NCBI RefSeq assembly: GCF_002105155.1
Contig: NW_019028994.1
Coordinates: forward strand, 372,001-436,000
Direction of reading: 5' to 3'
Length of the DNA stretch: 64,000 bases
Source of the DNA: Lobosporangium transversale
Taxonomy: Eukaryota
The notes beneath the pieces were generated by a model that saw only the letters and a program-made list of their open reading frames with translations, was not told where the DNA came from and did no database searches. The position numbers were made by a program, and so were the translations under genes. Below, one piece after another: positions 6,635-60,712 of this stretch. Position 1 is the first letter of the stretch. Each line of letters starts with the position of its first letter.

Positions 6635-7195
6635 CTACTCGCTGGGTTCTTCTTCTGGGTAGACTCTTGCAAACTTCCAGCCCTTGATGTAGCCTTCTTG
6701 GCCTTCATACCTAAAAGAAACCCAGTTTATTTTACCTTCTTCCTCATTGGAGTTGCTCTCGCTGACAACAAGTGTCTGGTTATTGACCTTTCTTGGGTGA
6801 GCGAGGACGTGCCTGGTGAAAGGACCGCCTGCAATCCTGGTAATGAACCACCTTTGCGGCTTTTCAGTAACACCAAGAGATGCTCCTGGAAGAGCCCCAG
6901 ATCTTCCTTCCGAGAGGTATTTTCTCTTATCTGCGTTCTTGTCATAAATTTGAAGAGACACCTGCCCTTTGCTATGGTTGCGAAGTTGCCATACTTGAAG
7001 TTTAGCTTCATCTTTGGGCTCAATCCTCACGGAGCCAGTTCTAGCATCTGGATAAGCAGTGAAGTAGCGGTTTCGGGAGGGTACATGCTGATTTCCTTTG
7101 AAAATGCGGTAGTAGCCATTGGGAAGCAAAGGCTCCGCGATGGCAACACTAATGATCGCAAGGATCGCAATCAATAAGACGGCGACTTGGTGCAT
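6635..7195 (-). CDS. Family A copy A1: secreted ricin-B/beta-trefoil-like protein, 186 aa
   Basis: Signal peptide MHQVAVLLIAILAIISVAIA, then EPLLPNGYYRI. Motifs QVW, QRW and KGW. The start follows a 5'UTR intron acceptor (aatag|tATG). The fold call is inferred from motif spacing. Confidence 0.8.
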   Translation of the reverse strand: MHQVAVLLIAILAIISVAIAEPLLPNGYYRIFKGNQHVPSRNRYFTAYPDARTGSVRIEPKDEAKLQVWQLRNHSKGQVSLQIYDKNADKRKYLSEGRSGALPGASLGVTEKPQRWFITRIAGGPFTRHVLAHPRKVNNQTLVVSESNSNEEEGKINWVSFRYEGQEGYIKGWKFARVYPEEEPSE

Positions 7196-9390
7196 ACTAT
7201 TCATTAGACATAGGCTTTGTGAGTACAGAGGAATAGATTGAATGGATACTCTTATGACAAAAATAATGGCATACGAGATAGTATCCAAAAGATTATTCTC
7301 ACCTTGAGATAAGGTCGACTTGAAGAAGTGGGGCAGAATTGAATGTGTATGAGGGATAGAGGTATGTTGTTGGACGGGGGTAAGCTTTGCTTTTATATAT
7401 GTTTTTTTTTTTTTTTTTCTCATGTGTAATATTGTACGAGGAACCCTTGGCGTAGAGCTGCAACAGCGCGTGGTATGTTGGTATGTTACACATAACACAC
7501 GGCATGCAAAAAAGAAATCGCGAATCAATCCGAGTGAAGAATGGTCTAAATTTAATACAGCGTTTGTACAAGAAAATGCAGAGATCACGCAAGGTTGGTG
7601 CATTTGGTCAATTAATATGCATTGCAAACACGGCGTCCCTCTGTTGACATTTCTTTTTTTTTTCTTTCTTTGATTCGTATGTCCTAAACCAACGGCCAAA
7701 AACATCTCAAAATATAAACATTCTGTGTGAAACAACCGATCTGAACGCAAAGACCTCATTGTTACCGAGGGTTGGCGTTTTTTTTTTTTTCCTTTCTTTT
7801 CTGTTATTTTTAGACTACGCCATCTCTTACCTTAATTGAACTCAAGCTAAATCGCAAATAGGGAAACCATCTCCAACCCTACCGCCACCAATAAATATCT
7901 GTTTTTCTCAATAGTCTTCTCTTTTTTTCTTACAGGAACTCATTGATTTTTGAGACGAACCACTTGTGCTCGTAGATTTTGTGTTTAGTCTTCTCTGTCT
8001 TACTTTACCGAGGGATCCTATTTGCCTTTTATTCACCGATTCGCTTGCCACAGTAAGCAGTGATCACCTTCAGAAGTCTCTCCCACACACTCCATTGGAA
8101 CAACAGCACCAAGCAACGGGAAATCTGCAACAGGGCTTTTGTGTACCCAGTGATTTCGTCCAATTTTTCTTAAATGTGGCGACGGTCAAAATGTGATAAC
8201 ATGTATTGAGAGCACTTTTATTACTTTATTGATATATATTTTTTGATACGACGGAAGCAGTGGCGATATGGAGTACTCGTTGTGACTCAGGCTGTAGAAA
8301 AGAAAAGAAAAAAAGGAAAAGAAAAGATCCTGAGTTCCTCCTAATGATGTCATCTCCTTTTTTTCTTTTTTTTTCCATTCCTATTTCCTATTCCTAGTAA
8401 GGTCCCAATTAACACACTTCTACTTCCGTTCATAATAGTACATGTACGGTACTGTTGTTTTATTTACAACAATTGGCATCATCACTAACGATCTTTTAAA
8501 CTAGTGTCTTGGCAAGCTCACTTTCAACATTAAGAATAAAATAATTGCCGTTTCTCCATCTTTTGCTAGAATAAGGAGCAGGGACATGGCGTTGACATGG
8601 AATTACAAGGGTCAGACAGGAACAAGAGTGGCCATTACCACAGGTATAATTAAGCTGTGACTTCATTTTCCCTGCATTGGCTAAATTCAGGGCTCGCACA
8701 GACAGACTTTGCAGGCATACTCAGTCATTGATGTGTCTTATGAAAAATGTATTTCATGTCTGAACAAGAATGAGGGAGGTCTCTATGGCTTTAAAGGAGA
8801 GAGTTAGGACATTCTCACTAAGCCCTCCAATGACACCCTAGTTTTGACTGTAGCAGTAACGATAACCTAGGGTTACATCGGGAAGGGGCTTTTTTTTGTA
8901 CTCGAGCCTCTCAAACAGAAGTGAACCAAAAGTCACTTTTATCCTGCTCAAAAACCAAATTGCCCAAGGACGCTATTAAGGTCAGTCATGAACCTATATA
9001 TCATAGCAGGTCAGCATCACTCGCATTAATTGCTTACTATTTTACGCCCTGACAGTTCAACTGCCTCAAGTATCTAGCATCAGTGTGCAAGTAAGAGTTA
9101 GGGATAAGAACCTTGATTGTTGATTTCATGCCTCCTTCAGATTTCACTTTGCAAAACGATTTCCTTTTTTTTTTTTTTTTTTTTTTTTTGTCGCGTCTTC
9201 CCTGTTTACTCCATTGATACTCTCTCTAGTGCCCAAAGACTTGTCTGACTGATTATCGCTTTTATTTCCATACTTTCATTTTCCATATTTTCAAACTAAA
9301 TACTAAAATAGAACCAAGACTATTCTCGATACATAGGACAAGGCTTTAAAGATCTCCTTTTGATTTCAAAAGGATGTCAGACGCTCGCCT

Positions 9391-9885
9391 TTAGTGAACA
9401 CGAGTAATGTTCCAAGGCTGCTTAGCTCTGGGATTGCCCTCAGAAAGAAGAGCAATGCGCTTGGGAAGTAGAGCGTTAGGGCTGACATCGACATTGAGCC
9501 ACTTGCCATGGACCTTCACTGGGTACACGATCTTGTACTTGTCGCCAGCCTTTTCGAGCGTCCACCTCTGGCTAGTGCCGCTAACAGCCAAGTAGGCATA
9601 CTCCCTGGCACCAAGTGGGCTCAAAGAAAGATATCGCGGCTGGTGTCCGCGAGTAGAAAGAGTGATCTTGTTACCGGCATAGTTACGAAGGTACCATACT
9701 TGATGGTAGCCAGGAGTTGGCAGGGACGCCTGGTAAGTGGCAGGCCAGAACCCGGCACTTCCCGTTTTAGTGGTGATATAGCGGTTGGCGATCGAGATCC
9801 GGTAGTATCCATTAGGAAGAAGCGCGGCCATGGCCACGTTGACAATTGCAAGGATTGCAACCAAGAAAGTGAGTGGTTGATGCAT
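9391..9885 (-). CDS. Family B copy B1 (divergent): secreted ricin-B/beta-trefoil-like protein, 164 aa
   Basis: Signal peptide, then LLPNGYYRI and three QxW motifs (QVW, QRW, QPW). No Cys. A 5'UTR intron acceptor lies 1 nt before the ATG. Confidence 0.8.
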   Translation of the reverse strand: MHQPLTFLVAILAIVNVAMAALLPNGYYRISIANRYITTKTGSAGFWPATYQASLPTPGYHQVWYLRNYAGNKITLSTRGHQPRYLSLSPLGAREYAYLAVSGTSQRWTLEKAGDKYKIVYPVKVHGKWLNVDVSPNALLPKRIALLSEGNPRAKQPWNITRVH

Positions 9886-9936
9886 CCTATTCAATAGCCA
9901 CAGACATAGCAAAGCGTTAACAAGAGATATAGTCTG

Positions 9937-13381: not shown

Positions 13382-14128
13382 TTACTTGTCGTCTTCACCA
13401 TCGCCGTTGTGTTGGTCGTCATCACCGTTGTTCATGTCGTCCTCACCGTTGTTCATGTCGTCCTCACCGTTGTTCATGTCGTCCTCACCGTTGTTCATGT
13501 CGTCCTCACCGTTGTTCATGTCGTCCTCACCGTTGTTCATGTCACCGTCGCCGTTATGCTTGTCTTCTTCGTCTTCGTCGTCGTCGGGGTAGACTCTCGC
13601 AAATCTCCAGGCCAGAGTGTAGTTAGTTTGGCTTTCATACTTGAAAGAAACCCAGTTCATTTTGTCATCATTCTCCTCAAAAGTGTTGCTCTCACTGACA
13701 ACAAGTGTCTGGTTACGGAACTTTCTCGGGTGAGTGAGCTTATATCTGATGTATCTGCCTCTTCCCACTCTGGAAATGAACCACTTTTGACGAGTCTTAG
13801 TAACACCCAGGCTTGCTGATGGAAGGGCTCCGGATCTTCCTTCCGAGAGGTATTTGCTCTCATCTGCATCTTCATCATAGACTTCAAGAGACACCTGGTC
13901 TTTGCTATGGTTGCGGAGTCGCCACACTTGAAGCTTATCTTCATTGTTAAGCTCAATCTTCACGGAACCAGACCTAGCGTCTGGATAAGCAGTGAAGTAA
14001 CGGTTCCTGGCGGGCAAGCGATAGTACCCTTTGAAGATACGATAGTAACCGTTAGGAAGCAAAGGCTCTGCAATGGCCACACTGATGGCTGCGAGGATCG
14101 CAACCAATAAGACGGTAGCTTGATGCAT
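13382..14128 (-). CDS. Family A copy A2, 248 aa, with expanded acidic C-terminal repeat tail
   Basis: Same signal peptide and LLPNGYYRI start. Motifs QVW, QKW and LAW. The tail has five exact MNNGEDD units plus variants. Confidence 0.8.
   Translation of the reverse strand: MHQATVLLVAILAAISVAIAEPLLPNGYYRIFKGYYRLPARNRYFTAYPDARSGSVKIELNNEDKLQVWRLRNHSKDQVSLEVYDEDADESKYLSEGRSGALPSASLGVTKTRQKWFISRVGRGRYIRYKLTHPRKFRNQTLVVSESNTFEENDDKMNWVSFKYESQTNYTLAWRFARVYPDDDEDEEDKHNGDGDMNNGEDDMNNGEDDMNNGEDDMNNGEDDMNNGEDDMNNGDDDQHNGDGEDDK
13416..13560 (-). repeat. 21-bp coding tandem repeat (tcgtcctcaccgttgttcatg on + strand)
   Basis: Five exact units plus degenerate flanking units, encoding MNNGEDD in A2. Confidence 0.95.
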
Positions 14129-16131: not shown

Positions 16132-16629
16132 CTAGTGGACAGGAGTGAAGTTCCAAGGCTGCTTGCCTCTGGGATTGCCATCGGAGAGGTGAGCAATGCG
16201 CTTGGGATATACAGTGTCAGGAGTGACATCGACATTGAGCCACTTGTCATGGACCTTCACTGGGTACACGATCTTGTACTTGCCGTCATCAGCCTTTTCG
16301 AGCGTCCACTTCTGGCTAGTGCCACTAACAGCCAAGTAAGCATACTCCTTGGCACCAGATCGGCTCAATGAGAGGTATCGCTGGTGGTATCCGCGAGGAG
16401 AAAGAGTGACCTTGTCACCAGCATGGTTACGGAGATACCATTCCTGATAATAACCAGGAGCTGACAGAGACTCCTGGTAAGTGGCAGGCCAGTACCCGGT
16501 GCCTCCTGTTTTAGTGGTGATATAGCGGTTATCGATGGAGATGCGGTAGTATCCATCAGGGAGAAGCGCAGCCACGGCCACGTTAACGATTGCGAGGGCT
16601 GTAGCCAAGAAAGCGAGTGGTTGATACAT
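16132..16629 (-). CDS. Family B copy B2, 165 aa
   Basis: MYQPLAFLATALAIVNVAVA signal peptide and QEW/QKW/QPW motifs. Confidence 0.8.
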   Translation of the reverse strand: MYQPLAFLATALAIVNVAVAALLPDGYYRISIDNRYITTKTGGTGYWPATYQESLSAPGYYQEWYLRNHAGDKVTLSPRGYHQRYLSLSRSGAKEYAYLAVSGTSQKWTLEKADDGKYKIVYPVKVHDKWLNVDVTPDTVYPKRIAHLSDGNPRGKQPWNFTPVH

Positions 16630-18092
16630 CCTATTCAATAGTCGCAGACATAGCAAAGCGTTAGCATGAGATATAGTCCGTTAAAAGAAAATATAACGAC
16701 AAACCCCTGTCAGAGCGGTGCTCAGGATCAGGTAAGAAGGCTTACCTGAAAAGGTTGAGTTGAAGAAGTAGGCTAGAGAAGGAGGCTAAAGAAGTAGGTA
16801 AGACAGGTAGAGTGCAAGAGCTGTGAGCGTTGGTTGATGATTGAGGATTGCTCTGAGGAACCCGTCCTTTTTATATGGATTTTGTCTTCTTTGTAACGTC
16901 TAGATTGACATGGCCGCGCAGCCAGCTTTACGTACCTGATAGTTACTCCCAGGGGTTCTAGATAAGTAAGTACGCGCAGCTCGCAACTATAGCCAATGAG
17001 ACTGATGTTTAAAGTGCCTTTGTTCTTTCATGCTTTCCTTCCAACGGTCTACTCTTCCTCCCGATCATGTATCTCGCAGATAGGCCATGTTTCATTGATC
17101 TAAACGCAGCCACCTCATTGTCTATGGTATGAATTTGCATTTTTATTTTTAGGAGGGCCAATCCATGTGCCTGTTCTCTTTTTTATTTTTATTTCTTCAT
17201 ACTTTTTACCTTGTCATCCATCGTGTGCTTCTAATCACTAGAGTCGCGAAGAGGCTCAGACATAGCCCATCATAGAAAGGTGAGGCTTCTCTAATACAAC
17301 GAAAATATATAAGGACTGAGATACGATTCCCTTTTTTATTTTTGAGATAGAGGGATCTATGGCTTAAGTCGTAATTGACACGATTTATTCTAAGCACTCA
17401 AAACCATCCAGCCAGGGCAAGTGTGCTTTGCTGTTCATTGATTCGCAGGAAGGAAGGGACTTCGTCCTTATGAGGCAAATGGCAATGCCAAAGATAAATA
17501 TAGCCAACTGACAATGAAGCATAGCCTACCAATATCAGCTCATGTGACTGATGCTTAATAAAATCTGCCCTTGCCTCATTTTCCTGCTCCTTGCGACATT
17601 TTATTGCAGTCCATAGATCTCACTTCCCAGCAATCATGATGTAAGGCGTAAATGGAAAAGGTCTGGAACCAACTCTAAACTGATTTAGCAAATTGCCACT
17701 AATTTAGGCTTCAAGTCCAAGATATTCACATATTCCTAAGATCAAGGCTTATACTCTTACGTGTACTGCACTTTGCGCTTATTAACTAAATCCTTGCTTT
17801 TTTATACATGTTCGGCCAGCATGTGCAAGTGATTCAATATCTTGTATTGAATAGAAGTACATTCAAGTGGATCAGTAGTAGTTGTTAACAAAGCATTGCT
17901 TTCGGTATATCGTGTTGTATTTCTTCTGAGCCATGAGATTTCTCTCAACATTAGTTAATCTATCTTTGAACACTAACACCAGCAATGCCAACAGATTATA
18001 TTCGTCTAAGGAGGTAATGATAAGGATATAGACTGGAGTTTTCTCTCGCTTTACGCTCTTTTTATTTATATTTTTTAATTTTTTAATTTTTT

Positions 18093-20012: not shown

Positions 20013-20594
20013 TTACTTATCATCTTCGTCGTCGTTGTGCTTGTCGCCTTCACTGTCGTTAATGTTGACTTTCGCAAATTTCCACGCCTGGGTGTAGCCT
20101 TCTTGGCCTTCATACCTAAAAGAAACGAAATTTATTTTATCTTCGTCGGAGCCGCTCTCGCTGACAACAAGTGTCTGGTTATCGAACTTTCTCGGATGGG
20201 TGAGCATATATCTGGTGTAAGAGCTTACTCCAACCTTAGTAATGAACCACCTTTGTCGCTCTTCAGTAACGCCCAGATGTGCTCCTGGAAGGGCGCCAGA
20301 TCTTCCTTCCGAGAGGTATTTCCTCTCATCTGCATCCTTATCATAGACCTCAAGGGACACTCGGCCTTTGCTATGGTTGCGAAGCCGCCACACTTGAAGT
20401 TTGCCTTCATCTTTGAGCTCAAGCCTCACGGAGCCAGTTCTAGCATCTGGATAAGCAGTGAAGTAGCGGTTTCTGGCGGGCACGTGGAAGGTTCCTTTAT
20501 AAATGCGGTAGTAACCATCTTGAAGCAAAGGCTCCGCGATGGCAACACTAATGATCGCAAGGATCGCAATCAATAAGACGGCGACTTGGTGCAT
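20013..20594 (-). CDS. Family A copy A3, 193 aa
   Basis: Signal peptide, EPLLQDGYYRI, QVW/QRW/QAW motifs and an acidic tail. Confidence 0.8.
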   Translation of the reverse strand: MHQVAVLLIAILAIISVAIAEPLLQDGYYRIYKGTFHVPARNRYFTAYPDARTGSVRLELKDEGKLQVWRLRNHSKGRVSLEVYDKDADERKYLSEGRSGALPGAHLGVTEERQRWFITKVGVSSYTRYMLTHPRKFDNQTLVVSESGSDEDKINFVSFRYEGQEGYTQAWKFAKVNINDSEGDKHNDDEDDK

Positions 20595-22529: not shown

Positions 22530-22874
22530 CTAGTGGACAGGAGTGAAGTTCCAAGGTTGCTTGCCTCTGGGATTGCCATCAGGGAGAAGAGCAATGCGCT
22601 TGGGATATACAGTGTCAGGAGTGACATCGACATTGAGCCACTTGCCATGGACCTTCACTGGGTACACGATCTTGTACTTGCCGTCATCAGCCTTTTCGAG
22701 CGTCCACTTCTGGCTAGTGCCACTAACAGCCAAGTAAGCATACTCTTTGCCATCAGATCGGCTCAACGAGAGGTATCGCTGGTGGTATCCGCGAGGAGAA
22801 AGAGTGACCTTGTCACCAGCATGGTTACGGAGATACCATTCCTGATAATAGCCAGAAACTGACAAAGCCTCCTG
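22530..22874 (-). pseudogene. Family B copy B3, 5'-truncated
   Basis: Homology to the B genes stops abruptly at ~22874 (codons QE). The signal peptide, first subdomain start and promoter are replaced by unrelated DNA. Confidence 0.85.
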
Positions 22875-22879
22875 CCTGG

Positions 22880-23397
22880 CAATATCATTCACGAACTTAC
22901 AAGAGTCAATGCCAAGATGAAGAAACACCTGATGAAATCAAATCGTACTTTAGCATGGATGAGATTTTTGGGTTTTTATTCCACTGGTTTGTTATTGGTG
23001 ATAAGGATTTTATTCTTGAATATCAGGCGCAATTAGTGGAGGCTGCATTGGGTCGAATCTAGATGCTTGGAGCCCAAGTTCTTGTGGTTATAAACGAACT
23101 ATCCATCCTAAAGGCTGTCATCAATTATCTTAGGGAGATTGACTCTTTGTTTTTTAATGCCGTGCAACAGTCAATGCTTCGATCAACAAATGCCTGTGTT
23201 CGTGGGACAATGTGGGGAGCCCCATGCCAGTCCTCTTAATTGAAACACTCGAAACACGGCCTCTGGATTCATGGCCACTACTTCCAAATAATACTATATC
23301 TGCGGCGTACACAGAAATACGAAGATCGTCGAATAAAGCGTATCCATTGGGTGAATGTATCAGTCACGTGGGAGGATTTGTTGTGACTGGTCATTAA
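22880..23397 (+). pseudogene. Disrupted coding fragment resembling Crinkler-like proteins of Mortierellaceae
   Basis: Manual translation ...AQLVEAALGRI*MLGAQVLVVINELSILKAVINYLREID...MLRSTNACVRGTMW/PMPVLLIETLETRPLDSWPLL. There is a stop at 23060-23062 and a frameshift near 23215. The family assignment is from recalled motif similarity only. Confidence 0.4.
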
Positions 23398-23517
23398 TAG
23401 TTATTTTATTATTTTGTATCTACTAATTAGGACAAGCTAAAGGAATCTTAAAGCCTTTTAAGCTACAGGCGAGTCCACCTCACCTAGAAAGCACCACAGT
23501 CAGCCCTGTGGCTAGAT

Positions 23518-23674
23518 CAGTGCTCCTATTCGATTCGAATAAGCTATCCTGGATCGATTCGAATGACGTGAATGGTTCGATTCGAGTATTGAATGGCTCG
23601 AGTATCGAATGGTTCGAATGAATCGAATGAATCGAATTTAGATATCTATTCGAATGGTTCGAATAGGAGCACCG
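23518..23674. mobile_element. 157-bp hAT-related MITE
   Basis: TIRs cagtgctcctattcga / tcgaataggagcaccg (1 mismatch) and internal tcgaat subterminal repeats. The TIR resembles the right end of the hAT at 33515-33531. No TSD was recognised. Confidence 0.7.
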
Positions 23675-25327
23675 CGCTGCAATCGATACTGTCTTTCTTT
23701 TATTAAGGAATGATGGCTATGGTGAACATAAGTCTACTCTAAACTGCGGTTATATTCACCGTCTGTGTGGGTTAACAGCATCAAGGAAGTTGCACGGTTA
23801 TGCTTTGACTTCAGTCAATTGACCATTTTCCTATTTTTTTACCCCTCTGCCTCCTATATCATCTTTAGATAATGTTTATAGCTGGACAAGAGCAGGATCA
23901 CCACCACTGCTGTTCTCCAGTCATGTGGCTAAACAGATATAAGTGAGTGAATGGGAACACCAACTTTTCTTATTACACTGTTGAGTAGACTCGTAGCAAA
24001 TAAACAAGTAATTTGATAAAAGAAGAAAAATAAAAGCGAGTGTGGATTTCTCATGACGATCAAGACTTTACTAAAATGAAAAGTGGTTAAATGATGTAAG
24101 ATTCCGGGTCCAATTGGTGAGGGATGCATTTATACAACTCAAGGTCGCAAAAAAAGGGGCACCACTCCCCGTTAGTCAGCATACGATGATTATTATCAGA
24201 TACGAATCCTCGTAGATCACATTCATTTATTAAAAAAAAAAAAAAAAAAAAAAATATGAAAGACACCTTCAGCACTATCTTAGGCAGCTAGCTGTGCCTA
24301 CTCCTGTTCATACATGCTCTTATGGCCATAGGGGCTCCTGCAGCATCATATGGGCCCGATTGGCTGCAGTGATTTTCGCTGATGCATTTTTTTTCACCAA
24401 TGTGCCAAAGCCTAGATATTTTTTCACTGGTGGGCTTGACAAGCGCGATGCGCTACTGACCTACAAGTAGCGGTATGGTGTATTCTAATACTAAGGTATC
24501 CTGGTGCGCCCTTAATACACCATATCAGAAAGCACTGATGATGAGAATTTCTGAGTGGTAGTGCGCCGCATTGATACCAGGCTAGTGTATTGCCATTCCA
24601 AGCTCTTTAAGAGGTATGAACCCTAGGATATGTCGCTATAGTTAAAGTTTCGTAACAAATAAACAAATAAATAAACTAAGCCTTTTCTAGGGCGACAAAT
24701 GTCGTTCAATTATATCGATCATTATGTTACATACGTCTCTTATTCATGACTCTTGTCCTATATATTCCTTTAGGAAGAGGTGCTTGCTTTCATCATGTAA
24801 ATCTGATTCAATAAATATCTGTAAGCAAAATGGGTTGTCGTGTTTGTATCTGCTTTACTTCAAAAGAATAATTAACCGGATCATTTCTAAACGATATTCA
24901 GTAATACAGCAGTCGAATCGTTGTTTCAGCAGGATGTTGACGAAATCAATATTGAACAACCATTTTCCCTCTTTTCCCTTTTGGATAAATATCCTCACCT
25001 CGACAGTGAAAGAAGTGTGTATTTGACTGCCGTAGTTGCTCGGAAGTGGCCACAATTGGGTAAGAGGTCTCGAACCTACAGGTGCCTGTGGTGGATAGTA
25101 ACTTGTATCAAGAGCTGGGTAATATGAATATTATTAAGACCGTCCCATCAAAACTGGGCGTTGACCATCAGCCCTTGGTTTGTGAGGGAAAAGAAAATGC
25201 CTTTGAGGTTTGTGTAATTGTGAACATTGACGCTTGAAATACTTGAAATCCTACTCCAACTCTGTTTCGCACCTCGCCCATTTCCCACTCTTTTCCGTAA
25301 TCGTGAGTTATCCGTCGACCATGCAGC

Positions 25328-25439
25328 AGGGTCAAGCTTGTCGCTCTTTTTGGCTTGACTCTTTCAAATATAAATGGTTTACTTAACAAAATTCTAATAA
25401 TTGAAAAGGACTAACCAAAAGAGCGACAAGCTTGACCCT
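25328..25439. repeat. 112-bp fold-back with a 23-bp perfect inverted repeat (possible mini-MITE)
   Basis: agggtcaagcttgtcgctctttt (25328-25350) pairs with aaaagagcgacaagcttgaccct (25417-25439). Confidence 0.7.
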
Positions 25440-26219
25440 CTGAAATGGGCGAATCATTGGTGTGTAGATTGCCAATGACTCAGCTCACATTTGTTCTGCA
25501 TATTTCATACAAAAATAATTTTTTTGTACCTCTGCATCTCGCGTGTGTAACAACATGCATTCTACATGCGCTCTGTAAAAACATCTGTTCTTATAGAGAC
25601 GCGTGGTTATATTTTTTGATATGACTTTAATAACAACATCAATAAATACCTCATGGGCGTGGTGTGCGGACCTGCGCCTTTATCCCTACTTTATCACCTG
25701 TATACTTCTCTGTCCATACAGAGCAGCCCAATCCAATTGTGTATTATTTACCTAACACCTCAACTGCGTACCCATAGTCAACTGGAAAAGCGGTATTGGG
25801 GTTGCACAACAAAAAATCATCTCCGACCCGTAGCACAACTATATTGCGTACCATATATCCAGCAGTTTAGCCCTTACTTGTACCTGTGTTATGATCTGAC
25901 AAGTTCCTGGAAAATGTATAAATACCCTTCTATTTCCTCACAGAGGTTGTCACACAGACAATCTCTTTCACAGAGCCATTACAAGAACAATCTCCCACAC
26001 CGGACCTTCGCCAGAGCACCTTAGACCCCTAGCAAGGACGTCCACATCCCTTGACCAGATCCTTGTAAGACTATATTATTGAACTTTCGTATTATAATTA
26101 AACATATGTTCGCATTCATAACTGCCCCTTTTTAAAAATGACTTCCTATTTTATTAATACTTTTGTTTTATTTTTTTTCTATTCAACACATCTAGTACTC
26201 ATCCTTAGCATTATTCACA

Positions 26220-26651
26220 ATGATCATTCCCTATGCTCTTTTGGTTCCCTTATTGCTTCTGAATTCAGCCTCTGCTAGCCATTGGACTTGTTACAGAAAA
26301 CGGATGAAGGGTATTGGTTATGATGTTGATGCTGTTATTGCAGATCCAAGTGGCATTATTATTGCACAAACTAGTTGGCACAGTGACTGGGCCGACGTTT
26401 ACACAAAAAAGAACCATAGAGGGAGGATGGACATTAGAAAAAATTTCCAAAGTTGGTCTTTTGCTATTGATGGTAATGACTATGGAACCTTCTATCCTGC
26501 AGAAGTGAACAGACTTGAAAACAACATTGACAGAATTGCTTTTGGGTGTTATGACACGAGTGCAACAGACTACTGCACGCAATATAACTACATCAGGAAT
26601 ATGTACTACAGATGGCTAGACGAGGTCAGGGACGGGAAGTTGAATGTCTAG
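26220..26651 (+). CDS. Small secreted protein of unknown function, 143 aa
   Basis: Signal peptide MIIPYALLVPLLLLNSASA, intact ORF with 3 Cys. A TATA-like tataaata lies at ~25917 and a probable 5'UTR intron (gtaag ~26066 to tctag ~26195) precedes the ATG. Confidence 0.7.
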   Translation: MIIPYALLVPLLLLNSASASHWTCYRKRMKGIGYDVDAVIADPSGIIIAQTSWHSDWADVYTKKNHRGRMDIRKNFQSWSFAIDGNDYGTFYPAEVNRLENNIDRIAFGCYDTSATDYCTQYNYIRNMYYRWLDEVRDGKLNV

Positions 26652-28309
26652 AGCAAATATCAAATATACATGTAGGAAAAAAAAACTTATTAGCATCACC
26701 AGCCCATACCTGTAGTATTGGTTCATCATAGCCATAGTCCATCTTCACCCAGCACACAAACAAATAAAGGCCGATTGAGTTTGCAAGGGCGCTCTTAGTT
26801 GCACTGATACTAATGACTTGAAATGCCAAGATGTAAAGTAAGCAATTTTACCGAGCACTGCTGACCTGCTGTGATCTATGGACCCACAACTGGTTTTAAT
26901 AGCCTTCCCAGCCAACTCGACTCCTGAGCAGGATAAAGGTAGCTTTCTGACTCCTTTTCATCTGGGAAACTCGAGTACAAAAAGAAAGGGGTTCTTTCCG
27001 AAGAAGAGAGAGTCCTCTCCTTTTTGCTTGCAGATGTTATCCTAAGTTACCATTACTGCTACAGCCAAAGTCAGGGTGTCATTGGAGGCTTAGTGAGAAT
27101 GTCCATAGTCCTCTCCTTTAAAGCCATGGGGATTGTCCTTCACTCCTGCAGGCATGAATGAGTACATTTTTCATGATACATCGATGATTGAGTATACCTG
27201 CAAAACCTGTCTGTGATTGTCTGTGCAGGTTCTCCTGAATTCAGGCGGTGCATGTAAAATGAAGTCACAACTCAGCTCATGTCTAAGCTACTATGGTGAT
27301 GGCACTCTTGTTCCTGTCTTGGTCAATGTCATGGCGGCACTCCTTCTTTTACCTTGATTTCTAGCAAAAGATGGTGGTTCTTTATTTTTATTTTCGTTTA
27401 TGAGAATGGGCTAGCCGAGATGCTAGTTTAAAAGATCACAGTTTTTAAAATAGTGCTGCTATTGTGAACAGATGTAGAAATCTGTTATCTTGGGCACTGA
27501 TTGTGAATGGAAATGGGGTGAGGGTCTGAGGGCCTTTTCTTTTCTTTTCTTTTTCTTTCTTTCTTTCTTTTCATAGCCTGAGCCACAACGAGCGCTTCAT
27601 GTCGCCCGAATTGGCAACATTACTTCCGCCGTACCAGTTGATATCAGTGATGATAATAATAATAAGCTCTCAATCTACTCTACCGCGACCGTTATCATGT
27701 TTAGTAGTTTCTGAGGAATATTGTACAATCCATAGAGCCCCGTCGCAGCTCTCTCTTTATATACTTGGCGCTTTTGCCCAAATAGAGTGGCGTAGGGGAA
27801 ACTTATGAAGCTGACCATTATGACAAGCGGACGGATAGGTAAAGGAAAGAGAAGAAGTGTTGAGTCAATCAGATATTGGTGGCGATAGTAGTCCAATTGA
27901 GGTGAGGGACGGCGTATGCTAAAAATAAGCCAACCCTCAGTAACAATGAGGTCTTTGCGCTCAGGACAGTTGTTTCACAAAGAATACTTATATTTTTGGG
28001 AGTTTTGGCCGTTGCTCCAAGCATATGAACTTAAGAAAATAAAAAAGAAACCACCGAAGGAAAAAAAAAAAAAAAAAAAAAAAAGAAGTATCAGTAAAGG
28101 GGCACCGTATCAACAATGCATACCAATTGGCCAAATATGTTGACCTTCGTTAAATTTAGACGTAGAAGGGGCCACTCATCATTCTTCGGGCTGATCTGAG
28201 GCTTTCCTTTTTGTATGTCGTGTATTGTGTGCATCATACCACGCACTGTTGCCAAGAGTACCTCGTACAATACACATGAAATCGAAAAAAAAAATAATAA
28301 AAAAAAGTC

Positions 28310-42767: not shown

Positions 42768-43606
42768 AAATCTGCCCTTGCCTCAATTTCCTGCTCCCTG
42801 CGACATTTTATTGCAGTCCATAAATCTCGCTTCCCAGCAATCATGATGTAGGGCGTTAAATGGAAAAGGTCTGGAACCAACTCTAAACTGATTTAGCAAA
42901 TTGCTGCTAATTTAGGCTTCAAGTCCAAGATATCCACATATTCCTTAGATCAAGGCTTATTCTTTCTCAGCCTTTATATATTTTCGTTGTATTAGAGGAG
43001 TCTCACCTTTCTATGATGGGCTATGTCTGGGCCTCTTCGCGACTCTAGTGATTAGAAGCACACGATGGATGACAAGGTAAAAAGTATGAAGAAATAAAAA
43101 TAAAAAAGAGAACAGGCACATGGATTGGCCCTCCTAAAAATAAAAATGCAAATTCATACCGTAGTCAATGAGGTGGCTGCGTTTAGATCAATGAAACATG
43201 GCCTATCTGCGAGATACATGATCGGGAGGAAGAGTAGACCGTTGGAGGGAAAGCATGAAAGAACAAAAGCACTTTGAACATCAGTCTCATTGGCTATAGT
43301 TGCGAGCTGCGCGTACTTACTTATCTAGAACCCCTGAGAGTAACTATCAGGTACGTAAAGCTGGCTGCGCGGTCATGTCAATCTAGACGTTACAAAGAAG
43401 ACAGAATCCATATAAAAAGGACGGGTTCCTCAGAGCAATTCTCAATCATCAACCAACGCTCACAGCTCTTGCACTCTACTTGCTTTACCTACTTCTTTAA
43501 CCTCCTTTTCTAGCCTACTTCTTCAACTCAACCTTCTCAGGTAAGCCTTATCTCCTGTTCCTGAGTACTGCGCTAGCAGGTTGCTCTATTGTCTTTGCTT
43601 TGCTTT

Positions 43607-43638
<32 letters not shown>

Positions 43639-43690
43639 GCAGGCTGCCTCCCCTGTTAACGCTTCGTTATATCTGCGACTATTGAATAGG

Positions 43691-44188
43691 ATGTATCAAC
43701 CACTCGCTTTCTTGACTATAGCCCTCGCAATCGTCAACGTGGCCGTGGCTGCACTCCTCCCTGATGGATACTACCGCATCTCCATCGATAACCGCTATAT
43801 CACCACTAAAACAGGAGGCACCGGGTACTGGCCTGCCACTTACCAGGAGTCTCTGTCAGCTCCTGGCTATTATCAGGAATGGTATCTCCGTAACCATGCT
43901 GGTGACAAGGTCACTCTTTCTCCTCGCGGATACCACCAGCGATACCTCTCATTGAGCCGATCTGGTGCCAAGGAGTATGCTTACTTGGCTGTTAGTGGCA
44001 CTAGCCAGAAGTGGACGCTCGAAAAGGCTGATGACGGCAAGTACAAGATCGTGTACCCAGTGAAGGTCCATGGCAAGTGGCTCAATGTCGATGTCACTCC
44101 TGACACTGTATATCCCAAGCGCATTGCTCTCCTCTCCGATGGCAATCCCAGAGGCAAGCAGCCTTGGAACTTCACTCCTGTCCACTAG
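43691..44188 (+). CDS. Family B copy B5, 165 aa
   Basis: Differs from B2/B4 at two mature residues (HGKW, IALL). Confidence 0.8.
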   Translation: MYQPLAFLTIALAIVNVAVAALLPDGYYRISIDNRYITTKTGGTGYWPATYQESLSAPGYYQEWYLRNHAGDKVTLSPRGYHQRYLSLSRSGAKEYAYLAVSGTSQKWTLEKADDGKYKIVYPVKVHGKWLNVDVTPDTVYPKRIALLSDGNPRGKQPWNFTPVH

Positions 44189-46128
44189 AGGCGAGCCTCT
44201 GACATCCTTTTGAAACTAAATGAAACCCTCAAAGGCCTTGTCCTAGATATTGAGGATAGTCTCGCTGCTGTTATAGTATTAAGTGTTTGAAAAAAAATAG
44301 AAATGAAAGTATGAACATAAAGGCAATAAAGCGATCAGATAGACCCTTTGTGCATTATACAGGATTCCCATGGAGTAAATAGTAAATATGCGACAATACA
44401 AAAAGGTCGTCTTACAAAGCGGAATCTGAGCAAGACTTGAAAACAATAAGCTCCTTTATCTGTAACTTTCATTTGCATTGGTACATATGACTTGAGGTAA
44501 CTAGGAACACATGGACGCCAAGATGTAAAGTAAGCAATTTTACCGAGCACTGCTGACCTGCTTTGATCTATGGGCCCACAACTGGTTTTAATAGCCTTCC
44601 CAGCCAACTCGACTCCTGAGCAGGATAAAGGTAGCTTTCTGGCTCCTTTTCATCTGGGAAACTCGAGTACAAAAAGAAAGGGGTTCTTTCCGAAGAAGAA
44701 GGGAGTCCTCTCCTTTTTGCTTGCAGATGTAATCCTAGGTTACCATTACTGCTACAGCCAAAGTCAGGGTGTCATTGGAGGCTTAGTGAGAATGTCCATA
44801 GTCCTCTCCTTTAAAGCCATGGGGATTGTCCTTCACTCCTGCAGGCATGAATGAGTACATTTTTCATGATACATCGATGATTGAGTATACCTGCAAAACC
44901 TGTCTGTGATTGTCTGTGCAGGTTCTCCTGAATTCAGGCGGTGCATGTAAAATGAAGTCACAACTCAGCTCATGTCTAAGCTACTATGGTGATGGCACTC
45001 TTGTTCCTGTCTTGGTCAATGTCATGGCGGCACTCCTTCTTTTACCTTGATTTCTAGCAAAAGATGGTGGTTTTTTTAATTTTTATATTCATTTATGAGA
45101 ATTAGCTAGCCAAGGTGCTGGTTTAAAAAATCATAGTTTTCAAAATAGTGCTACTATTATGAACAGACATAGATATGTGTTATATTGGGCACTGATTGCG
45201 AATGGAAATGGGGTGAGGGTCTGAGGGCCTTTTCTTTTCTTTTCTTTCTTTTTTGCTTTTCATAGCCTGAGCGCTTCATGTCGCCCGAATTGGCAACATT
45301 GCTTCCGCCATACTAGATGATATCAATGATGATGATAATAAGCTCTCAATACTACTCTACCATGACCGTTATCGTGTTTAGTAGTTTCTAAGGAATCAAT
45401 CACAAAGTCTGCGAGCATAGTGATTAGTCTCAACAATCAATGAGCTCTGTAAGGAAAGAGAAGAAGTGTTGAGTCAATCAGATATTGGTGGTGATAGTAG
45501 TCCAATTGAGGTAAGAAACGGCGCAATCTAAAAATAAGCTAACTCTTGGTTACAATGAGGTCTTTACGTTCATATCAATTGTTTCACAAAGCTTATATAT
45601 TATGTATTAGCCGTTGCTCCAAGCATATGAACTTCAGAAAATAAAAAAGAAATCACTGAAGGGAAAAAAAAAGACGTGTCAGTAAAGGGGCACCGTATCA
45701 ACAATGCATACCAATTGGCCAAATATGTTGACCTTCGTTAAATTTAGACGTAGAAGGGGCCACTCATCATTCTTCGGACTGATCTGAGGCTTTCCTTTTT
45801 GTATGTCGTGTATTGTGTGCATCATACCACGCGCTGTTGCCAAGAGTACCTCGTACAATACACATGAAATCGAAAAAAAAAAATAATAAAAAAAAGTCTA
45901 TAAAAGCAAAGCTTTCCTTCATACGGCAACATCTCTCTATCCACTTGCACACATTCAAGCCTGCCTTACTCCCTCAAGCCTACACTCTAGCCTGCCCTAT
46001 ACTACCATTTCCTAAATTTACCCTACCTCAAGGTGAGAATAAGTATTTTGTATGCTTTTACTTTTATCGTGAGTCCATCCATCCATTCTATTCCTCAGTG
46101 CTCACTAAGTCTGCGCTCAACGAGTAGT

Positions 46129-46713
46129 ATGCATCAAGCCGTCGCCTTATTGGTTGCGATCTTTGCGATCATTAGTGTGGTCATTGCAGAACCCTTGCTT
46201 CCAAATGGCTACTACCGTATTTACAAGGGAAACCACCGCGTGCCCTCCAAGCACCGTTACTTCACTGCTTATCCAGATGACAGGACTGGCTCTGTGAAGA
46301 TTGAGCTCAAAAATGAAGATGAACTTCAAGTATGGCGACTCCGCAATCATGACAACGGCAAAGTGTCCCTTGAAGTCTACGATGAAGATGCAGATGAGAG
46401 CAAATACCTTTCGGAAGGAAGATTTGGAGCCCTTCCAGGAGCATATCTAGGTGTTACTGAAAAGCGCCAAAAATGGTTCATTACCAGGGTTGGGAGAGGT
46501 GCTTACACAAGATACGCACTCACTCACCCGAGGAAGTTCAATAACCAAACGCTTATCGTGAGTGAAAGCAACACCTATGACGATGACATTAATAAACCGA
46601 ACCGGGTTTCCTTTAGATATGAAGGCCAAGAAGGTTACACTCATGCCTGGATGTTTTGGAGAGTCTACCCTGATGGCGACAACGGAGACGATAAGCACGA
46701 AGGCGACAAGTAG
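46129..46713 (+). CDS. Family A copy A6, 194 aa
   Basis: The promoter and N-terminal half are near-identical to A4, and the C-terminal half is divergent. Confidence 0.8.
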   Translation: MHQAVALLVAIFAIISVVIAEPLLPNGYYRIYKGNHRVPSKHRYFTAYPDDRTGSVKIELKNEDELQVWRLRNHDNGKVSLEVYDEDADESKYLSEGRFGALPGAYLGVTEKRQKWFITRVGRGAYTRYALTHPRKFNNQTLIVSESNTYDDDINKPNRVSFRYEGQEGYTHAWMFWRVYPDGDNGDDKHEGDK

Positions 46714-48894: not shown

Positions 48895-49491
48895 TTACTT
48901 GTCGTCTTCGCCGTCATCATTGTGCTTGTCGTCGCTGTCATCGTCGTCAGGGTAGACTCTCGCAAACTTCCAAGCTTGAGTATAGTTTGTTTGGCCTTGA
49001 TACCTAAAAGAAACCCAGTTTGGCTTGCCAATATCCTCGTCATAGGTGTTGCTTTCACTCACAATAAGCGTTTGGTTATTGACCTTTCTTGGGTGAGCGA
49101 GCATATATCTGGTATATAAGCTTACTCCGACCTTGGTGATGAACCACTTTTGTCGCTTTTCAGTGACACCAAGATGTGCTCCTGGAAGAGCCCCAGACCT
49201 TCCCTCTGAGAGATACTTTCTCTCGTCTGCGTCCTCGTTATAAACTTGAAGGGATACTTGGCCTTTGCCATGGTTGCGGAGCCGCCACACTTGAAGCTCA
49301 TCATCATTTTTGGTTTCGATTCTCACAGAGCCAGTTCTAGCATCTAGGTAAGCAGTGAAGTAACGGTTTCTGGAGGGAACGCGGTGGTTCCCTTTGTAAA
49401 TACGATAGTAGCCATCAGGAAGCAAGGGCTTTGCAGCGGCCACACTAATGACCGCAATAATCGCAATCAATAAGATGGTAATTTGATGCAT
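48895..49491 (-). CDS. Family A copy A7, 198 aa
   Basis: Signal peptide, KPLLPDGYYRI, QVW/QKW/QAW motifs and an acidic tail. Confidence 0.8.
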   Translation of the reverse strand: MHQITILLIAIIAVISVAAAKPLLPDGYYRIYKGNHRVPSRNRYFTAYLDARTGSVRIETKNDDELQVWRLRNHGKGQVSLQVYNEDADERKYLSEGRSGALPGAHLGVTEKRQKWFITKVGVSLYTRYMLAHPRKVNNQTLIVSESNTYDEDIGKPNWVSFRYQGQTNYTQAWKFARVYPDDDDSDDKHNDDGEDDK

Positions 49492-51391: not shown

Positions 51392-51889
51392 CTAGTGGAC
51401 AGGAGTGAAGTTCCAAGGCTGCTTGCCTCTGGGATTGCCATCGGAGAGGAGAGCAATGCGCTTGGGATATACAGTGTCAGGAGTGACATCGACATTGAGC
51501 CACTTGCCATGGACCTTCACTGGGTACACGATCTTGTACTTGCCGTCATCAGCCTTTTCGAGCGTCCACTTCTGGCTAGTGCCACTAACAGCCAAGTAAG
51601 CATACTCCTTGGCACCAGATCGGCTCAATGAGAGGTATCGCTGGTGGTATCCGCGAGGAGAAAGAGTGACCTTGTCACCAGCATGGTTACGGAGATACCA
51701 TTCCTGATAATAGCCAGGAGCTGACAGAGACTCCTGGTAAGTGGCAGGCCAGTACCCGGTGCCTCCTGTTTTAGTGGTGATATAGCGGTTATCGATGGAG
51801 ATGCGGTAGTATCCATCAGGGAGAAGCGCAGCCACGGCCACGTTAACGATTGCGAGGGCTGTAGCCAAGAAAGCGAGTGGTTGATACAT
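51392..51889 (-). CDS. Family B copy B6, 165 aa
   Basis: The mature protein is identical to B5. Confidence 0.8.
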   Translation of the reverse strand: MYQPLAFLATALAIVNVAVAALLPDGYYRISIDNRYITTKTGGTGYWPATYQESLSAPGYYQEWYLRNHAGDKVTLSPRGYHQRYLSLSRSGAKEYAYLAVSGTSQKWTLEKADDGKYKIVYPVKVHGKWLNVDVTPDTVYPKRIALLSDGNPRGKQPWNFTPVH

Positions 51890-57551: not shown

Positions 57552-57587
<36 letters not shown>

Positions 57588-57697: not shown

Positions 57698-58312
57698 TTA
57701 CTCGTCATCTTCGTCATCGTTGTGCTTGTCAACTTCGTCATCGTTGTGCTTGTCATCTTCGTCATCGTCGATGACGGCTTTCAGAAACCTCCACTCCCTG
57801 GTGTAGTCTTCTTGGTCTTCACCCCTAAAAGTAACCCAGTTTGGCTTATTAATATCCTCGTCACGGGAGTTGCCCTCGCTGGCAACAAGTGTCTGGTTGT
57901 AGTACTTTATTGGGTGAGTGAGGATGTATCTGGTCCAAATGTTTTCCCCAACCGAGGTAAAGAACCACTTTCGTCGCTTTTCAATAACACCCAGATGCGC
58001 TCCTGGAAGGATGCCAGGTCTTCCTTCCGAGAGGAATTTTCTCTTATCTGCGTTCTTGTCATAGACTTCAAGGGACACCCTGCCTTTGCCATGGTTGCGA
58101 AGTCGCCACACTTGAAGTTTAGCTTCATCTCTGGGCTCAAGTCTCACGGAGCCAACATTAGCATTTGGGTAAGCAGTGAAGTAGCGGTATGTTCTGGGCA
58201 AGCGGTGCTTTCCTTTGCAAATACGATAGTAGCCGTCAGGGAGCAAAGGCTCCGCAATGGCCACACTAATGATCGCAAGGATCGCAATCAATAAGACGGT
58301 GACTTGGTGCAT
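57698..58312 (-). CDS. Family A copy A8, 204 aa (most divergent)
   Basis: Signal peptide, EPLLPDGYYRI and QVW/RKW/REW motifs. The tail has a duplicated DKHNDDE unit. Confidence 0.8.
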   Translation of the reverse strand: MHQVTVLLIAILAIISVAIAEPLLPDGYYRICKGKHRLPRTYRYFTAYPNANVGSVRLEPRDEAKLQVWRLRNHGKGRVSLEVYDKNADKRKFLSEGRPGILPGAHLGVIEKRRKWFFTSVGENIWTRYILTHPIKYYNQTLVASEGNSRDEDINKPNWVTFRGEDQEDYTREWRFLKAVIDDDEDDKHNDDEVDKHNDDEDDE

Positions 58313-60214
58313 ACTATTCATTAGATATAGGCTTTGTGAGTACAGAGGACTAGATTGAATGGACGCTTTTATGACAAAAGTAATGGTATACGAAATAGGG
58401 TCTAAAAACTTATTCTCACCTTGAGGTAGGTCGACTTGAAGTAGTGGGGCGGATGTGTATGAGGGATAGAGATATGTTGTTGGACAGGGGTAAGCTTTGC
58501 TTTTATATATGTTTTTTTTTCCTCATGTGTAATACTGTACGAGGAACCCTTGGCGTAGAGCTGCAATAGCGCGTGGTATGTTACACAAAACACACGGCAT
58601 GCAAAAAGAAATCACGAGTGATGAATGGGCCCTCCTTTCTCTAAATTTAACGCGGCGTTTGTACGGGAAAATGCTGAGGTCACGCAAGATCGACAAATCT
58701 GGCCAATTAATTTGCATTGTTGACATGGCGTCTCTTATTGACATCTACTTTTTTTTTCTGGTCCAAATATCCAACTGATCTGAACGCAAAGACCTCATTG
58801 TTACCGAGAATTGGCTTATTTTTAGACTACGCCGCCTCACCTTAAATATCTGTGCCTCAATAGGTTTCTCTTTTCTTACAGAACTCGTTGGTTGTCGAGA
58901 CCAGTTACTATTTCTAGCTTTTTTTTTCTTCCTATTACTGAGAGGCCACTATCTTATTTATTGACTTGCTTGTCATAGTTGGATGCGATCAGCTTCACAA
59001 GTCGTCATACCATTTAGGCAACAGTGTCAAGTATATAAAGCGAGATCTGTACGGCGTTCTATAAATTGCCAGAAGTTACTAAACGTGGCAATGGTCATAG
59101 TAGAAAATATTGAGAGTTTTTTTTTTATTTATTTTTTTTATAATATTGTTAATATGAGGTGCTCGTTGAGTGTCAGACTACAGATAAAAAAAAAAAGGAA
59201 AATATCCTTAGACTCTCCTAGTGATGTCACCTCTATTTTCTCCCAAGGTAGCACATTTCTACTTGTGTTTATAACAGAAACATTACTTTAAAATGGCTAG
59301 CTCATTTTCAAAAATAAAAATAAAATTTAAAAACCACCATCTTTTGCTAGAAATCAAGGTAAAAGAAGGAGTGCCGCCATGACATTGACCAAGACAGGAA
59401 CAAGAGTGCCATCACCATAGTAGCTTAGACATGAGCTGAGTTTGACTTCATTTTACATGCACCGCCTGAATTCAGGAGAACCTGCACAGACAATCACAGA
59501 CAGGTTTTGCAGGTATACTCAATCATCGATGTATCATGAAAAATGTACTCATTCATGCCTGCAGGAGTGAAGGACAATCCCCATGGCTTTAAAGGAGAGG
59601 ACTATGGACATTCTCACTAAGCCTCCAATGACACCCTGACTTTGGCTGTAGCAGTAATGGTAACCTAGGATTACATCTGCAAGCAAAAAGGAGAGGACTC
59701 CCTTCTTCTTCGGAAAGAACCCCTTTCTTTTTGTACTCGAGTTTCCCAGATGAAAAGGAGCCAGAAAGCTACCTTTATCCTGCTCAGGAGTCGAGTTGGC
59801 TGGGAAGGCTATTAAAACCAGTTGTGGGCCCATAGATCAAAGCAGGTCAGCAGTGCTCGGTAAAATTGCTTACTTTACATCTTGGCGTCCATGTGTTCCT
59901 AGTTACCTCAAGTCATATGTACCAATGCAAATGAAAGTTACAGATAAAGGAGCTTATTGTTTTCAAGTCTTGCTCAGATTCCGCTTTGTAAGACGACCTT
60001 TTTGTATTGTCGCATATTTACTATTTACTCCATGGGAATCCTGTATAATGCACAAAGGGTCTATCTGATCGCTTTATTGCCTTTATGTTCATACTTTCAT
60101 TTCTATTTTTTTTCAAACACTTAATACTATAACAGCAGCGAGACTATCCTCAATATCTAGGACAAGGCCTTTGAGGGTTTCATTTAGTTTCAAAAGGATG
60201 TCAGAGGCTCGCCT

Positions 60215-60712
60215 CTAGTGGACAGGAGTGAAGTTCCAAGGCTGCTTGCCTCTGGGATTGCCATCGGAGAGGAGAGCAATGCGCTTGGGATATACAGTGT
60301 CAGGAGTGACATCGACATTGAGCCACTTGTCATGGACCTTCACTGGGTACACGATCTTGTACTTGCCGTCATCAGCCTTTTCGAGCGTCCACTTCTGGCT
60401 AGTGCCACTAACAGCCAAGTAAGCATACTCCTTGGCACCAGATCGGCTCAATGAGAGGTATCGCTGGTGGTATCCGCGAGGAGAAAGAGTGACCTTGTCA
60501 CCAGCATGGTTACGGAGATACCATTCCTGATAATAGCCAGGAGCTGACAGAGACTCCTGGTAAGTGGCAGGCCAGTACCCGGTGCCTCCTGTTTTAGTGG
60601 TGATATAGCGGTTATCGATGGAGATGCGGTAGTATCCATCAGGGAGAAGCGCAGCCATGGCCACGTTAACGATTGCGAGGGCTGTAGCCAAGAAAGCGAG
60701 TGGTTGATACAT
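60215..60712 (-). CDS. Family B copy B7, 165 aa
   Basis: Near-identical to B2-B6. It combines the HDKW and IALL variants. Confidence 0.8.
   Translation of the reverse strand: MYQPLAFLATALAIVNVAMAALLPDGYYRISIDNRYITTKTGGTGYWPATYQESLSAPGYYQEWYLRNHAGDKVTLSPRGYHQRYLSLSRSGAKEYAYLAVSGTSQKWTLEKADDGKYKIVYPVKVHDKWLNVDVTPDTVYPKRIALLSDGNPRGKQPWNFTPVH

Follow-up and report, generated by a model that had tools for sequence, protein, structure and literature searches.

An array of two paralogous gene types, here termed A and B, was analyzed in a 64,000-nucleotide stretch of the Lobosporangium transversale genome (contig NW_019028994.1, positions 372,001 to 436,000), which is called the window throughout, and from whose first letter all coordinates are counted. 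Six-frame motif scans, open reading frame (ORF) lists, and tblastn searches revealed eight intact A ORFs, six intact B ORFs, and one 5′-truncated B between positions 6635 and 60712, and no extra A or B copy was found elsewhere within the 64-kb window by tblastn or motif scanning. Both types encode proteins that are predicted to be secreted and to adopt a beta-trefoil fold; B is nearly uniform over most of the array, and A is divergent.

Layout, transcription, and products of the A/B array

The scans and tblastn confirmed the arrangement described in an earlier note on this DNA, namely seven B-A pairs (one with a truncated B) and one orphan A, co-oriented, about 2 kb apart, and lying in three orientation blocks. 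The first block (units 1-3, minus strand) comprises A1 (6635-7195), with a short acidic tail; B1 (9391-9885), a divergent B about 77% identical to B2; A2 (13382-14128); B2 (16132-16629); A3 (20013-20594); and a B3 remnant (22530 to about 22855-22874) that lacks the promoter, the signal peptide, and the first ~51-57 codons. The second block (units 4-6, plus strand) comprises the orphan A4 (28540-29133), B4 (36447-36944), A5 (39063-39617), B5 (43691-44188), and A6 (46129-46713), and the third (units 7-8, minus strand) comprises A7 (48895-49491), B6 (51392-51889), A8 (57698-58312), which is the most divergent A, and B7 (60215-60712). The six intact B genes lie 1900-2195 bp from the start of A, and B3 lies about 1935 bp from it. 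Self-alignment revealed that the repeated unit spans ~5-6.5 kb, including non-coding DNA, with 68-98% identity between units. Since the entire unit was duplicated, non-coding DNA included, the co-orientation and spacing of the two genes need no functional explanation.

Each A and B gene possesses its own TATA box, located 195-293 bases upstream, and a predicted intron in the 5′ untranslated region (5′-UTR) that ends one base before the ATG, as exemplified by the GT..AG intron of B5 (43541-43689, plus strand) and the A4/A6-type intron of A6 (46033-46127, plus strand). Two 5′-UTR intron haplotypes were found among the B copies. The genes lie in tandem, not head-to-head, and neither a shared promoter nor a single transcript was found; the B-to-A spacer of the B5/A6 unit (44189-46128, plus strand), for example, holds the TATA box and promoter of A itself, and is a patchwork of tracts that are near-identical between units. 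At the level of 8-mers, only A/T runs were common to A and B promoters, as judged against a weak null (a mononucleotide shuffle, by which A/T runs are not preserved). In a Podila-type relative (L001, 1-669), the intron lies within the coding region, whereas the introns of the window genes lie in the 5′-UTR.

Transcription was assessed using the contigs of run X5, which is presumed to be RNA, none of the runs being on record as such. These contigs cover the B coding region and 3′ end, contain a GT..AG join across the A4/A6-type intron that was seen in this run only, jump over the A7 intron to an upstream exon at 49601, and include one A1-specific end, and 15 of 30 bins, mostly in spacer DNA, were empty. 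The coding coverage, the intron joins, and the empty spacer bins together make transcription and splicing of both gene types probable in this one library; contig data do not give expression levels or co-regulation.

A hydrophobic N-terminal stretch, the sole basis on which signal peptides were judged, is present in all 14 A and B proteins, so that secretion, as proposed in the earlier note, appears likely. The cores of both proteins are basic (charge +3 to +14), with at most one cysteine per protein. All eight window A proteins end in acidic tails (net charge -3 to -30), which are absent from the 27 correctly parsed relatives (29 examined, 2 misparsed). The tails range from 3 to 67 residues in length, and the longest, that of A2 (13382-13585, minus strand; net -30), consists of an acidic 7-residue motif repeated in tandem. 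Sequence comparison shows A and B to be paralogs: A5 and B4 are 29% identical (BLASTP, E = 5e-17), and B is 29-36% identical to the window A proteins. The list of motifs common to A and B in the earlier note needs two corrections: YLS..R is missing in B1 and A8, and the third QxW of A reads Q-x-W in only three of eight copies.

AlphaFold2 models contain 12 strands each, in three repeats, with predicted local distance difference test (pLDDT) values of 87.9 for A5 and 84.7 for B2; the latter model was built on an alignment consisting mostly of A-like rows. Structure searches with these predicted models gave Z scores of 16-18 across 127-141 residues, and bore out the proposed fold: both A and B are predicted beta-trefoils. 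The best structural match (VIA) of A was clitocypin 2 (Z 17.7, root-mean-square deviation 2.6, 140 residues aligned), and that of B was cocaprin 1 (Z 17.5, root-mean-square deviation 2.4, 127 residues aligned), with the lectins RSA and CNL at Z 16.4-16.9, effectively tied with cocaprin 1 for B. Foldseek ranked clitocypin first for A, and HA17, tied with many others, for B.

The Pfam family RicinB_lectin_2 (PF14200) matched 28 of 33 family members at E values up to 1, and its gathering threshold of 25.6 bits was reached by no window protein (B2 scored best, at 24.1; A proteins scored 13-16, or not at all). The Inhibitor_I66 profile matched no window protein in the Pfam scan, and a sequence search of solved structures returned only matches at E 0.036-0.7. 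The sugar-site motif N-(x)-QxW was absent from all 14 A and B proteins, as were the mucoricin motifs EEGRL and EAANQ. Across the family, the surface stretch with the highest conservation is a G-R-S-G hairpin that lies between strands 6 and 7 of the models, and a GR[SAG] motif was found in 24 of 29 relatives. Mycospins act on S1 proteases through an exposed loop, and as substrate-like inhibitors they use different loops, according to one report (PMC9104457); because of that precedent we infer that the G-R-S-G hairpin could be a candidate substrate-like reactive loop.

Unit 4 departs from the pattern. At the center of the first inversion, 3.9 kb of other DNA (22875-26824) stands in place of the unit-4 B and of the 5′ part of B3, and in runs X3 and X4 a contig ends at its junction (26795-26824). 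A4 has no B partner, as the earlier note had stated, with the correction that the B position is occupied by an unrelated gene, C (26220-26651, plus strand), which encodes a 143-residue, secreted-type protein with four cysteines and lies 1888 bp before A4. No Pfam match was obtained for C, an Atlas search yielded only leads under 0.9, and three paralogs (62-74% identity) were found in Lobosporangium alone. The B-like spacing of C may be a breakpoint coincidence. A hAT-family transposon (approximately 29714-33530, plus strand; ORF pieces at 30759-33083) lies between units 4 and 5. At its left edge, a perfect 35-bp inverted repeat with a 1-base center (29643-29713) is perhaps a hairpin-opening footprint, and inside it (29950-30324), 142-bp inverted arms at 88% identity, with a 31-bp self-palindromic motif at each end, suggest a possible nested miniature inverted-repeat transposable element. 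Elsewhere in the array, a 437-bp piece upstream of B2 (17321-17758) is inverted relative to the other units, and the left side of the array is flanked by exons of a glutathione peroxidase (1513-2073, plus strand) and an RNase H1 (3357-3824, minus strand).

Homogenization of B and divergence of A

The near-constancy of B claimed in the earlier note holds for five of the six intact copies. B2, B4, B5, B6, and B7 differ at only two mature residues, whereas B1 differs from them at 37-39 of 164 residues (synonymous divergence, dS, about 0.31). The uniformity of the five extends to silent sites: dS ranges from 0 to 0.036 across their 10 pairs, only four sites vary in the 435 bp of mature coding region, and two of 145 third positions are variable, compared with 31 of 116 positions in the intron. 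Measured as diversity, variation is 0.009 across the coding region, against 0.146 for the upstream intron and 0.086 for the first 150 bp of the 3′ flank. On the intron side, the last difference shared by copies is found at -20, and on the other side the first is found 31 bp past the stop codon. In addition to dS being far below intron divergence, the two sides of the gene give incompatible partitions. The intron haplotypes group the copies as {B2,B6} and {B4,B5,B7}, the 3′-flank haplotypes group them as {B2,B4} and {B5,B6,B7}, and all four combinations are present, indicating recombination within B.

The introns of B2 and B6 are identical (0 of 116 differences), and B5 and B6 show no difference in the 500 positions from +400 to +900, their identity extending more than 900 bp downstream. 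Because the conversion tracts take in intron and flank, a DNA donor is indicated, and conversion mediated by cDNA was rejected on the same grounds (B2=B6 across the intron, B5=B6 in the 3′ flank). Recent duplication of whole units was likewise rejected as the source of B identity, since the flanks of identical B copies differ by 14-28% within 50-250 bp. Together, the homogenized silent sites and the flank recombinants argue for conversion tracts that overlap on B, rather than for protein constraint alone or misassembly, and the uniformity of B in five loci is likely to have arisen by gene conversion. The earlier note had allowed that recent duplication or misassembly might account wholly for the homogeneity of B; an explanation of that kind does seem to apply, in the changed form of conversion. 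The B3 remnant, with 12 private changes in 345 bp (four of them at the junction), is a weak control because its flank drifted similarly.

The extent of near-identity declines along the unit. In 100-bp bins, the unit pairs with at least 97.5% identity number 10-15 of 15-21 in mature B, 1-3 of 21-28 near the A promoter, 1 of 28 in the 5′ half of A, 0 of 28 in its 3′ half, and 0 in the non-coding 3′ flank of A. Near-identity is thus lost in the coding 3′ half and the non-coding flank alike, so that the gradient is positional and, by itself, no proof of selection.

Conversion also reaches A from its 5′ side. The promoter and first ~100 codons of A4 are near-identical to those of A6, A1 and A5 are near-identical in their 5′ part and stay close up to ~codon 110, and one signal peptide is common to A1, A3, A5, and A8. 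At 46424-46570 in A6, 24 of 24 checked differences in run X4 are A4 letters, up to ~46570, which may reflect isolate-level conversion or a clipped low-depth branch. Over their full length, A pairs differ at 22-69 of ~180 residues (28 pairs), with dS of 0.21-1.03, and the pairwise ratio of nonsynonymous to synonymous rates (omega) is 0.15-0.38 without A8 and 0.38-0.73 with it. Variable positions make up 75% of loop and 40% of strand. Under model M0, omega was 0.33 in the 5′ half and 0.52 in the 3′ half, the split having been picked after the conversion pattern was seen. In codon site models (M7/M8 likelihood-ratio statistic 13.3), sites with omega above 1 were found in the 3′ half, where they lie in loops and the strongest is column 125 (seven residues in eight copies), and none were found in the 5′ half. 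Against a mosaic-tree null, the observed M1a/M2a statistic of 9.9 was reached in 5 of 161 simulations, while the nominal threshold was passed in 14 of 161, and the statistic drops to 5.3 when one gappy loop is excluded, and to 5.2 when A8 is. Positive selection in the C-terminal loops of A is therefore a weak signal, real at best modestly. By the codon comparisons, the A copies are old and mostly under purifying selection, with a few changing loops; the earlier description of A as intact in all eight copies and divergent stands, but "hypervariable" overstates it, as omega is below 1.

Relatives and competing explanations

Relatives were searched as annotated proteins, and linkage in them was judged by locus tags and accessions. 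A search with A5 gave 30 matches, 22 of them outside the window's own set, in Mortierella alpina, M. polycephala, M. antarctica, Haplosporangium, Podila, Lunasporangiospora, and Cunninghamella, and a profile search of 1.84 billion representatives added Linnemannia, Benniella, Modicella, Actinomortierella, and others (20 of 51 matches were looked up). The B search gave two matches among 59 candidates, both from Lobosporangium, and the profile search contained no further B-like row. The closest outsiders to B are M. polycephala and Haplosporangium members at 41-43% identity, a value exceeded by none of the 37 tree relatives. The family is widespread in the Mortierellaceae, with no close relative of B found outside Lobosporangium among annotated proteins. 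A metagenome scan yielded one locus of 1547 bp, which has 24 bases upstream of the start and is uninformative on linkage. Neither the family nor the locus was described in the literature titles and abstract openings searched, subscription papers not being covered.

In trees, the window A proteins form one clade (100/99). The branch of B is long and falls outside the A-like group when distant paralogs serve as outgroup; without these paralogs, B is unresolved among the M. polycephala, M. alpina, and Linnemannia groups. An origin of B as a recent offshoot of the window A genes was weakly rejected (approximately unbiased (AU) test, p 0.037), and a grouping of B with the M. polycephala/Haplosporangium/Modicella group, which was named after the identities had been seen, was not rejected (AU p 0.16). 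Adjacent paralogs with consecutive locus tags occur in Mortierella sp. AD031, GBA35, and NVP41, and the AD031 pair and one GBA35 protein form one clade, so that tandem pairs of this family arise repeatedly and independently. Five distant, secreted-type trefoil paralogs (P0049, P0051, P0058, P0065, and P0067), including two pairs with consecutive accessions, lie on another Lobosporangium scaffold (490 kb). Two proteins of Cunninghamella echinulata, a member of the Mucorales (P0029 and P0030), are 60-67% identical to Podila-type members, among which they are nested (100/99), and are closer to them than other Mortierellaceae members are, suggesting a possible fungus-to-fungus transfer.

We consider it reasonably probable that A and B are separately acting, secreted trefoil paralogs used in defense or competition, which were amplified as one unit, with B kept uniform by conversion and A forming an old panel of variants. 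In this model, two paralogous genes with their own promoters, encoding small, cationic, predicted-secreted single beta-trefoils, would have been amplified eight-fold as a unit, and their products would act separately, most likely as loop-mediated protease inhibitors. Overlapping conversion tracts of ~0.5-1.5 kb, acting at the DNA level, would have spread one B allele through five loci, and the uniformity of B would probably be favored for the dose of a single product. The tracts would reach the promoter and 5′ half of A, and not its 3′ half, where loops would drift or be selected to differ. The outcome would be a panel of A variants beside a uniform B, that is, opposite evolutionary regimes 2 kb apart. 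The target class is the least certain part of the model: protease inhibition is tentatively put first, at somewhat less than an even chance, while a lectin and some other activity are each given a smaller and equal share, and the predicted activity of an inhibitor is slightly favored over that of a lectin.

Several points weigh against this reading. Structure matches to the models cannot separate a protease inhibitor from a lectin. Among 33 family members, only five matched the Inhibitor_I66 profile, and these did so weakly (best E 0.0058), and the R-S of the candidate hairpin, carried by six of eight A and five of six B proteins, is changed in B1, A6, and A8. The acidic tails of A occur in the same lineage that has B. 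Because the place of B in the tree is unsure, some of the relatives' proteins may be members of the B lineage. Finally, a common subunit, once secreted, could act in trans with every A protein, which would also favor a uniform B, so that conversion is compatible with a complex.

An alternative with the same array history, differing only in target, is that A and B are independent lectins or polyanion binders, which act by coating or agglutinating bacteria, nematodes, or rival fungi, with A loops tuning glycan specificity. Among sub-threshold matches, RicinB_lectin_2 is the most frequent (28 of 33 members), RSA, CNL, and PPL trail the best match by no more than ~1 Z for B and 1.3 for A, Atlas neighbors are mostly RicinB_lectin_2 clusters, and there is a weak profile match to CCL2. 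However, no window protein carries N-(x)-QxW, a point softened by the use of other sites in fungal trefoil lectins, and clitocypin is the top match of A by both structure aligners. We regard this alternative as credible but unlikely.

It is doubtful, in our estimate, that the pattern arose with no selection at all, B being a recombination hub (for example, through high transcription), A having drifted out of the range of conversion, and the array being a transposon-driven by-product. In its favor, the distance gradient ignores the coding boundary at the 3′ end of A, the hAT element and the inversions lie within the array, and the M1a/M2a statistic is sensitive to one gappy loop and to A8, with 14 of 161 null simulations past its nominal threshold. 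On the other hand, all eight A genes are intact although dS reaches 1.0, and their omega is well below 1; the homogenized tract of B stops 20-31 bp outside the coding region at either end, and few simulations (5 of 161) reached the observed statistic.

The earlier note had read the locus as a two-component secreted system with an invariant and a diversified specificity subunit. In such a system, B would be a common carrier or adaptor able to bind each of the eight A specificity subunits, and conversion would keep B compatible with all of them. Consistent with this are the uniformity of B in five of six intact copies, the variable loops and weak positive-selection signal in the 3′ half of A, the coverage of both gene types in one probable RNA run, the gain of acidic tails by Lobosporangium A alone while B is cationic, and the top Foldseek rank for B of HA17, a trefoil that partners another trefoil. 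In a bolder version, a fast-diverged, cationic B would capture the newly gained acidic tails of the eight loop-diversified A proteins in a combinatorial secreted heteromer, with conversion selected both for a uniform B and for sparing the A loops. On balance, a two-component system is not supported. The invariance of B reaches silent sites inside conversion tracts, A diverges below the neutral rate overall, and homogenization is also lost in the non-coding DNA past A. Linkage and orientation follow from unit duplication, the promoters are separate and, under the weak null, have only A/T runs in common among their 8-mers, and both cores are basic. A-like proteins occur in more than 20 other records, with no close B found among the annotated proteins searched, and B1 has diverged at 37-39 residues while its partner, A1, converts with A5. 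A complex prediction for mature A5 and mature B2 scored 0.00 in two runs without folded controls, and carries no weight either way. The carrier-subunit form is thus quite improbable, and the tail-capture form is rated just as low.

That B identity is an artefact of collapsed or polished repeats is scarcely credible, even though run X1 may be the source of the window's own assembly, since the private and shared variants of the B copies form recombinant patterns, short-read contigs from two studies collapse over the B center at 4.4 (X1) and 4.5 (X3) times the unique-contig depth (contig depth not being copy number; for X4, a third DNA run, the B-center contig was not among the rows listed), and the short contigs of another record break at B, one of 2794 bp joining an A2 piece to a B piece.

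The locus represents a predicted-secreted, uncharacterized family across the Mortierellaceae, which are common soil fungi with little-studied protein defenses. The eight natural A variants and two B types offer a ready panel for mapping reactive loops, and concerted evolution beside divergence in one 3-kb unit provides a clean case for asking whether selection filters conversion tracts. If the heteromer were real, it would be a fungal constant/variable recognition system of a kind not found in the literature or databases searched.

Comparison with known systems

The fungal ricin-B-like lectins CNL, RSA, MpL, PPL, and CCL2 are cytoplasmic. The window proteins have the same predicted fold (Z 14-17) and sub-threshold RicinB_lectin_2 matches, but unlike these lectins they fall below the Pfam cut-off and lack the N-QxW motif. 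To our knowledge, the characterized fungal beta-trefoil defense proteins come from mushrooms and lack signal peptides. Paired paralogous trefoils form heteromers in HA17/HA33 and CdtA/CdtC, which are encoded in bacterial operons together with a third, toxic component. Both systems were among the structural matches here, and the A/B unit has no toxic third component.

Sugar sites of fungal trefoil lectins can lie elsewhere than the canonical position, as described for CCL2 (PMC9104457). Mucoricin, of Rhizopus delemar, is a ~17-kDa ricin-B-like protein of the Mucoromycota that is secreted or shed (10.1101/2021.01.13.426274), but its motifs are absent from all 14 window proteins, and no Rhizopus protein was among the named matches of A5.

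Parallels are also found among fungal protease inhibitors. The cocaprins of Coprinopsis cinerea (CCP1-3) are likewise single beta-trefoils encoded by tandem paralogs that differ mostly in loops, and the three paralogs lie within 4 kb and are regulated differently (PMC9104457). Cocaprins are acidic, lack a signal peptide, and number three genes, whereas the window proteins are predicted to be secreted, have basic cores, are encoded by 14 intact genes under conversion, and share 13% identity with them. Of the mycocypins and mycospins, clitocypin 2 is the best structural match of A, with N-terminal profile similarity at E 0.4-0.7. Mycocypins form isoform families with variable loops, as A does, and inhibit papain through loops beta1-2 and beta3-4, with an Asn P1 residue in loop beta5-6 (PMC9579014); an Asn in the beta5-6 loop is present in only four of eight A proteins. 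The glycine-rich beta1-beta2 loop of clitocypin is unmatched in the window proteins, which carry a predicted signal peptide, and mycocypins have been described from mushrooms.

The history of the B array, rather than its products, resembles that of fungal ribosomal protein paralogs, whose coding regions are homogenized, with dS far below intron divergence, and for which a cDNA donor was proposed (10.1101/751792). The coding homogenization is alike in the two cases, but the tracts across the introns and flanks of B indicate a DNA donor here.

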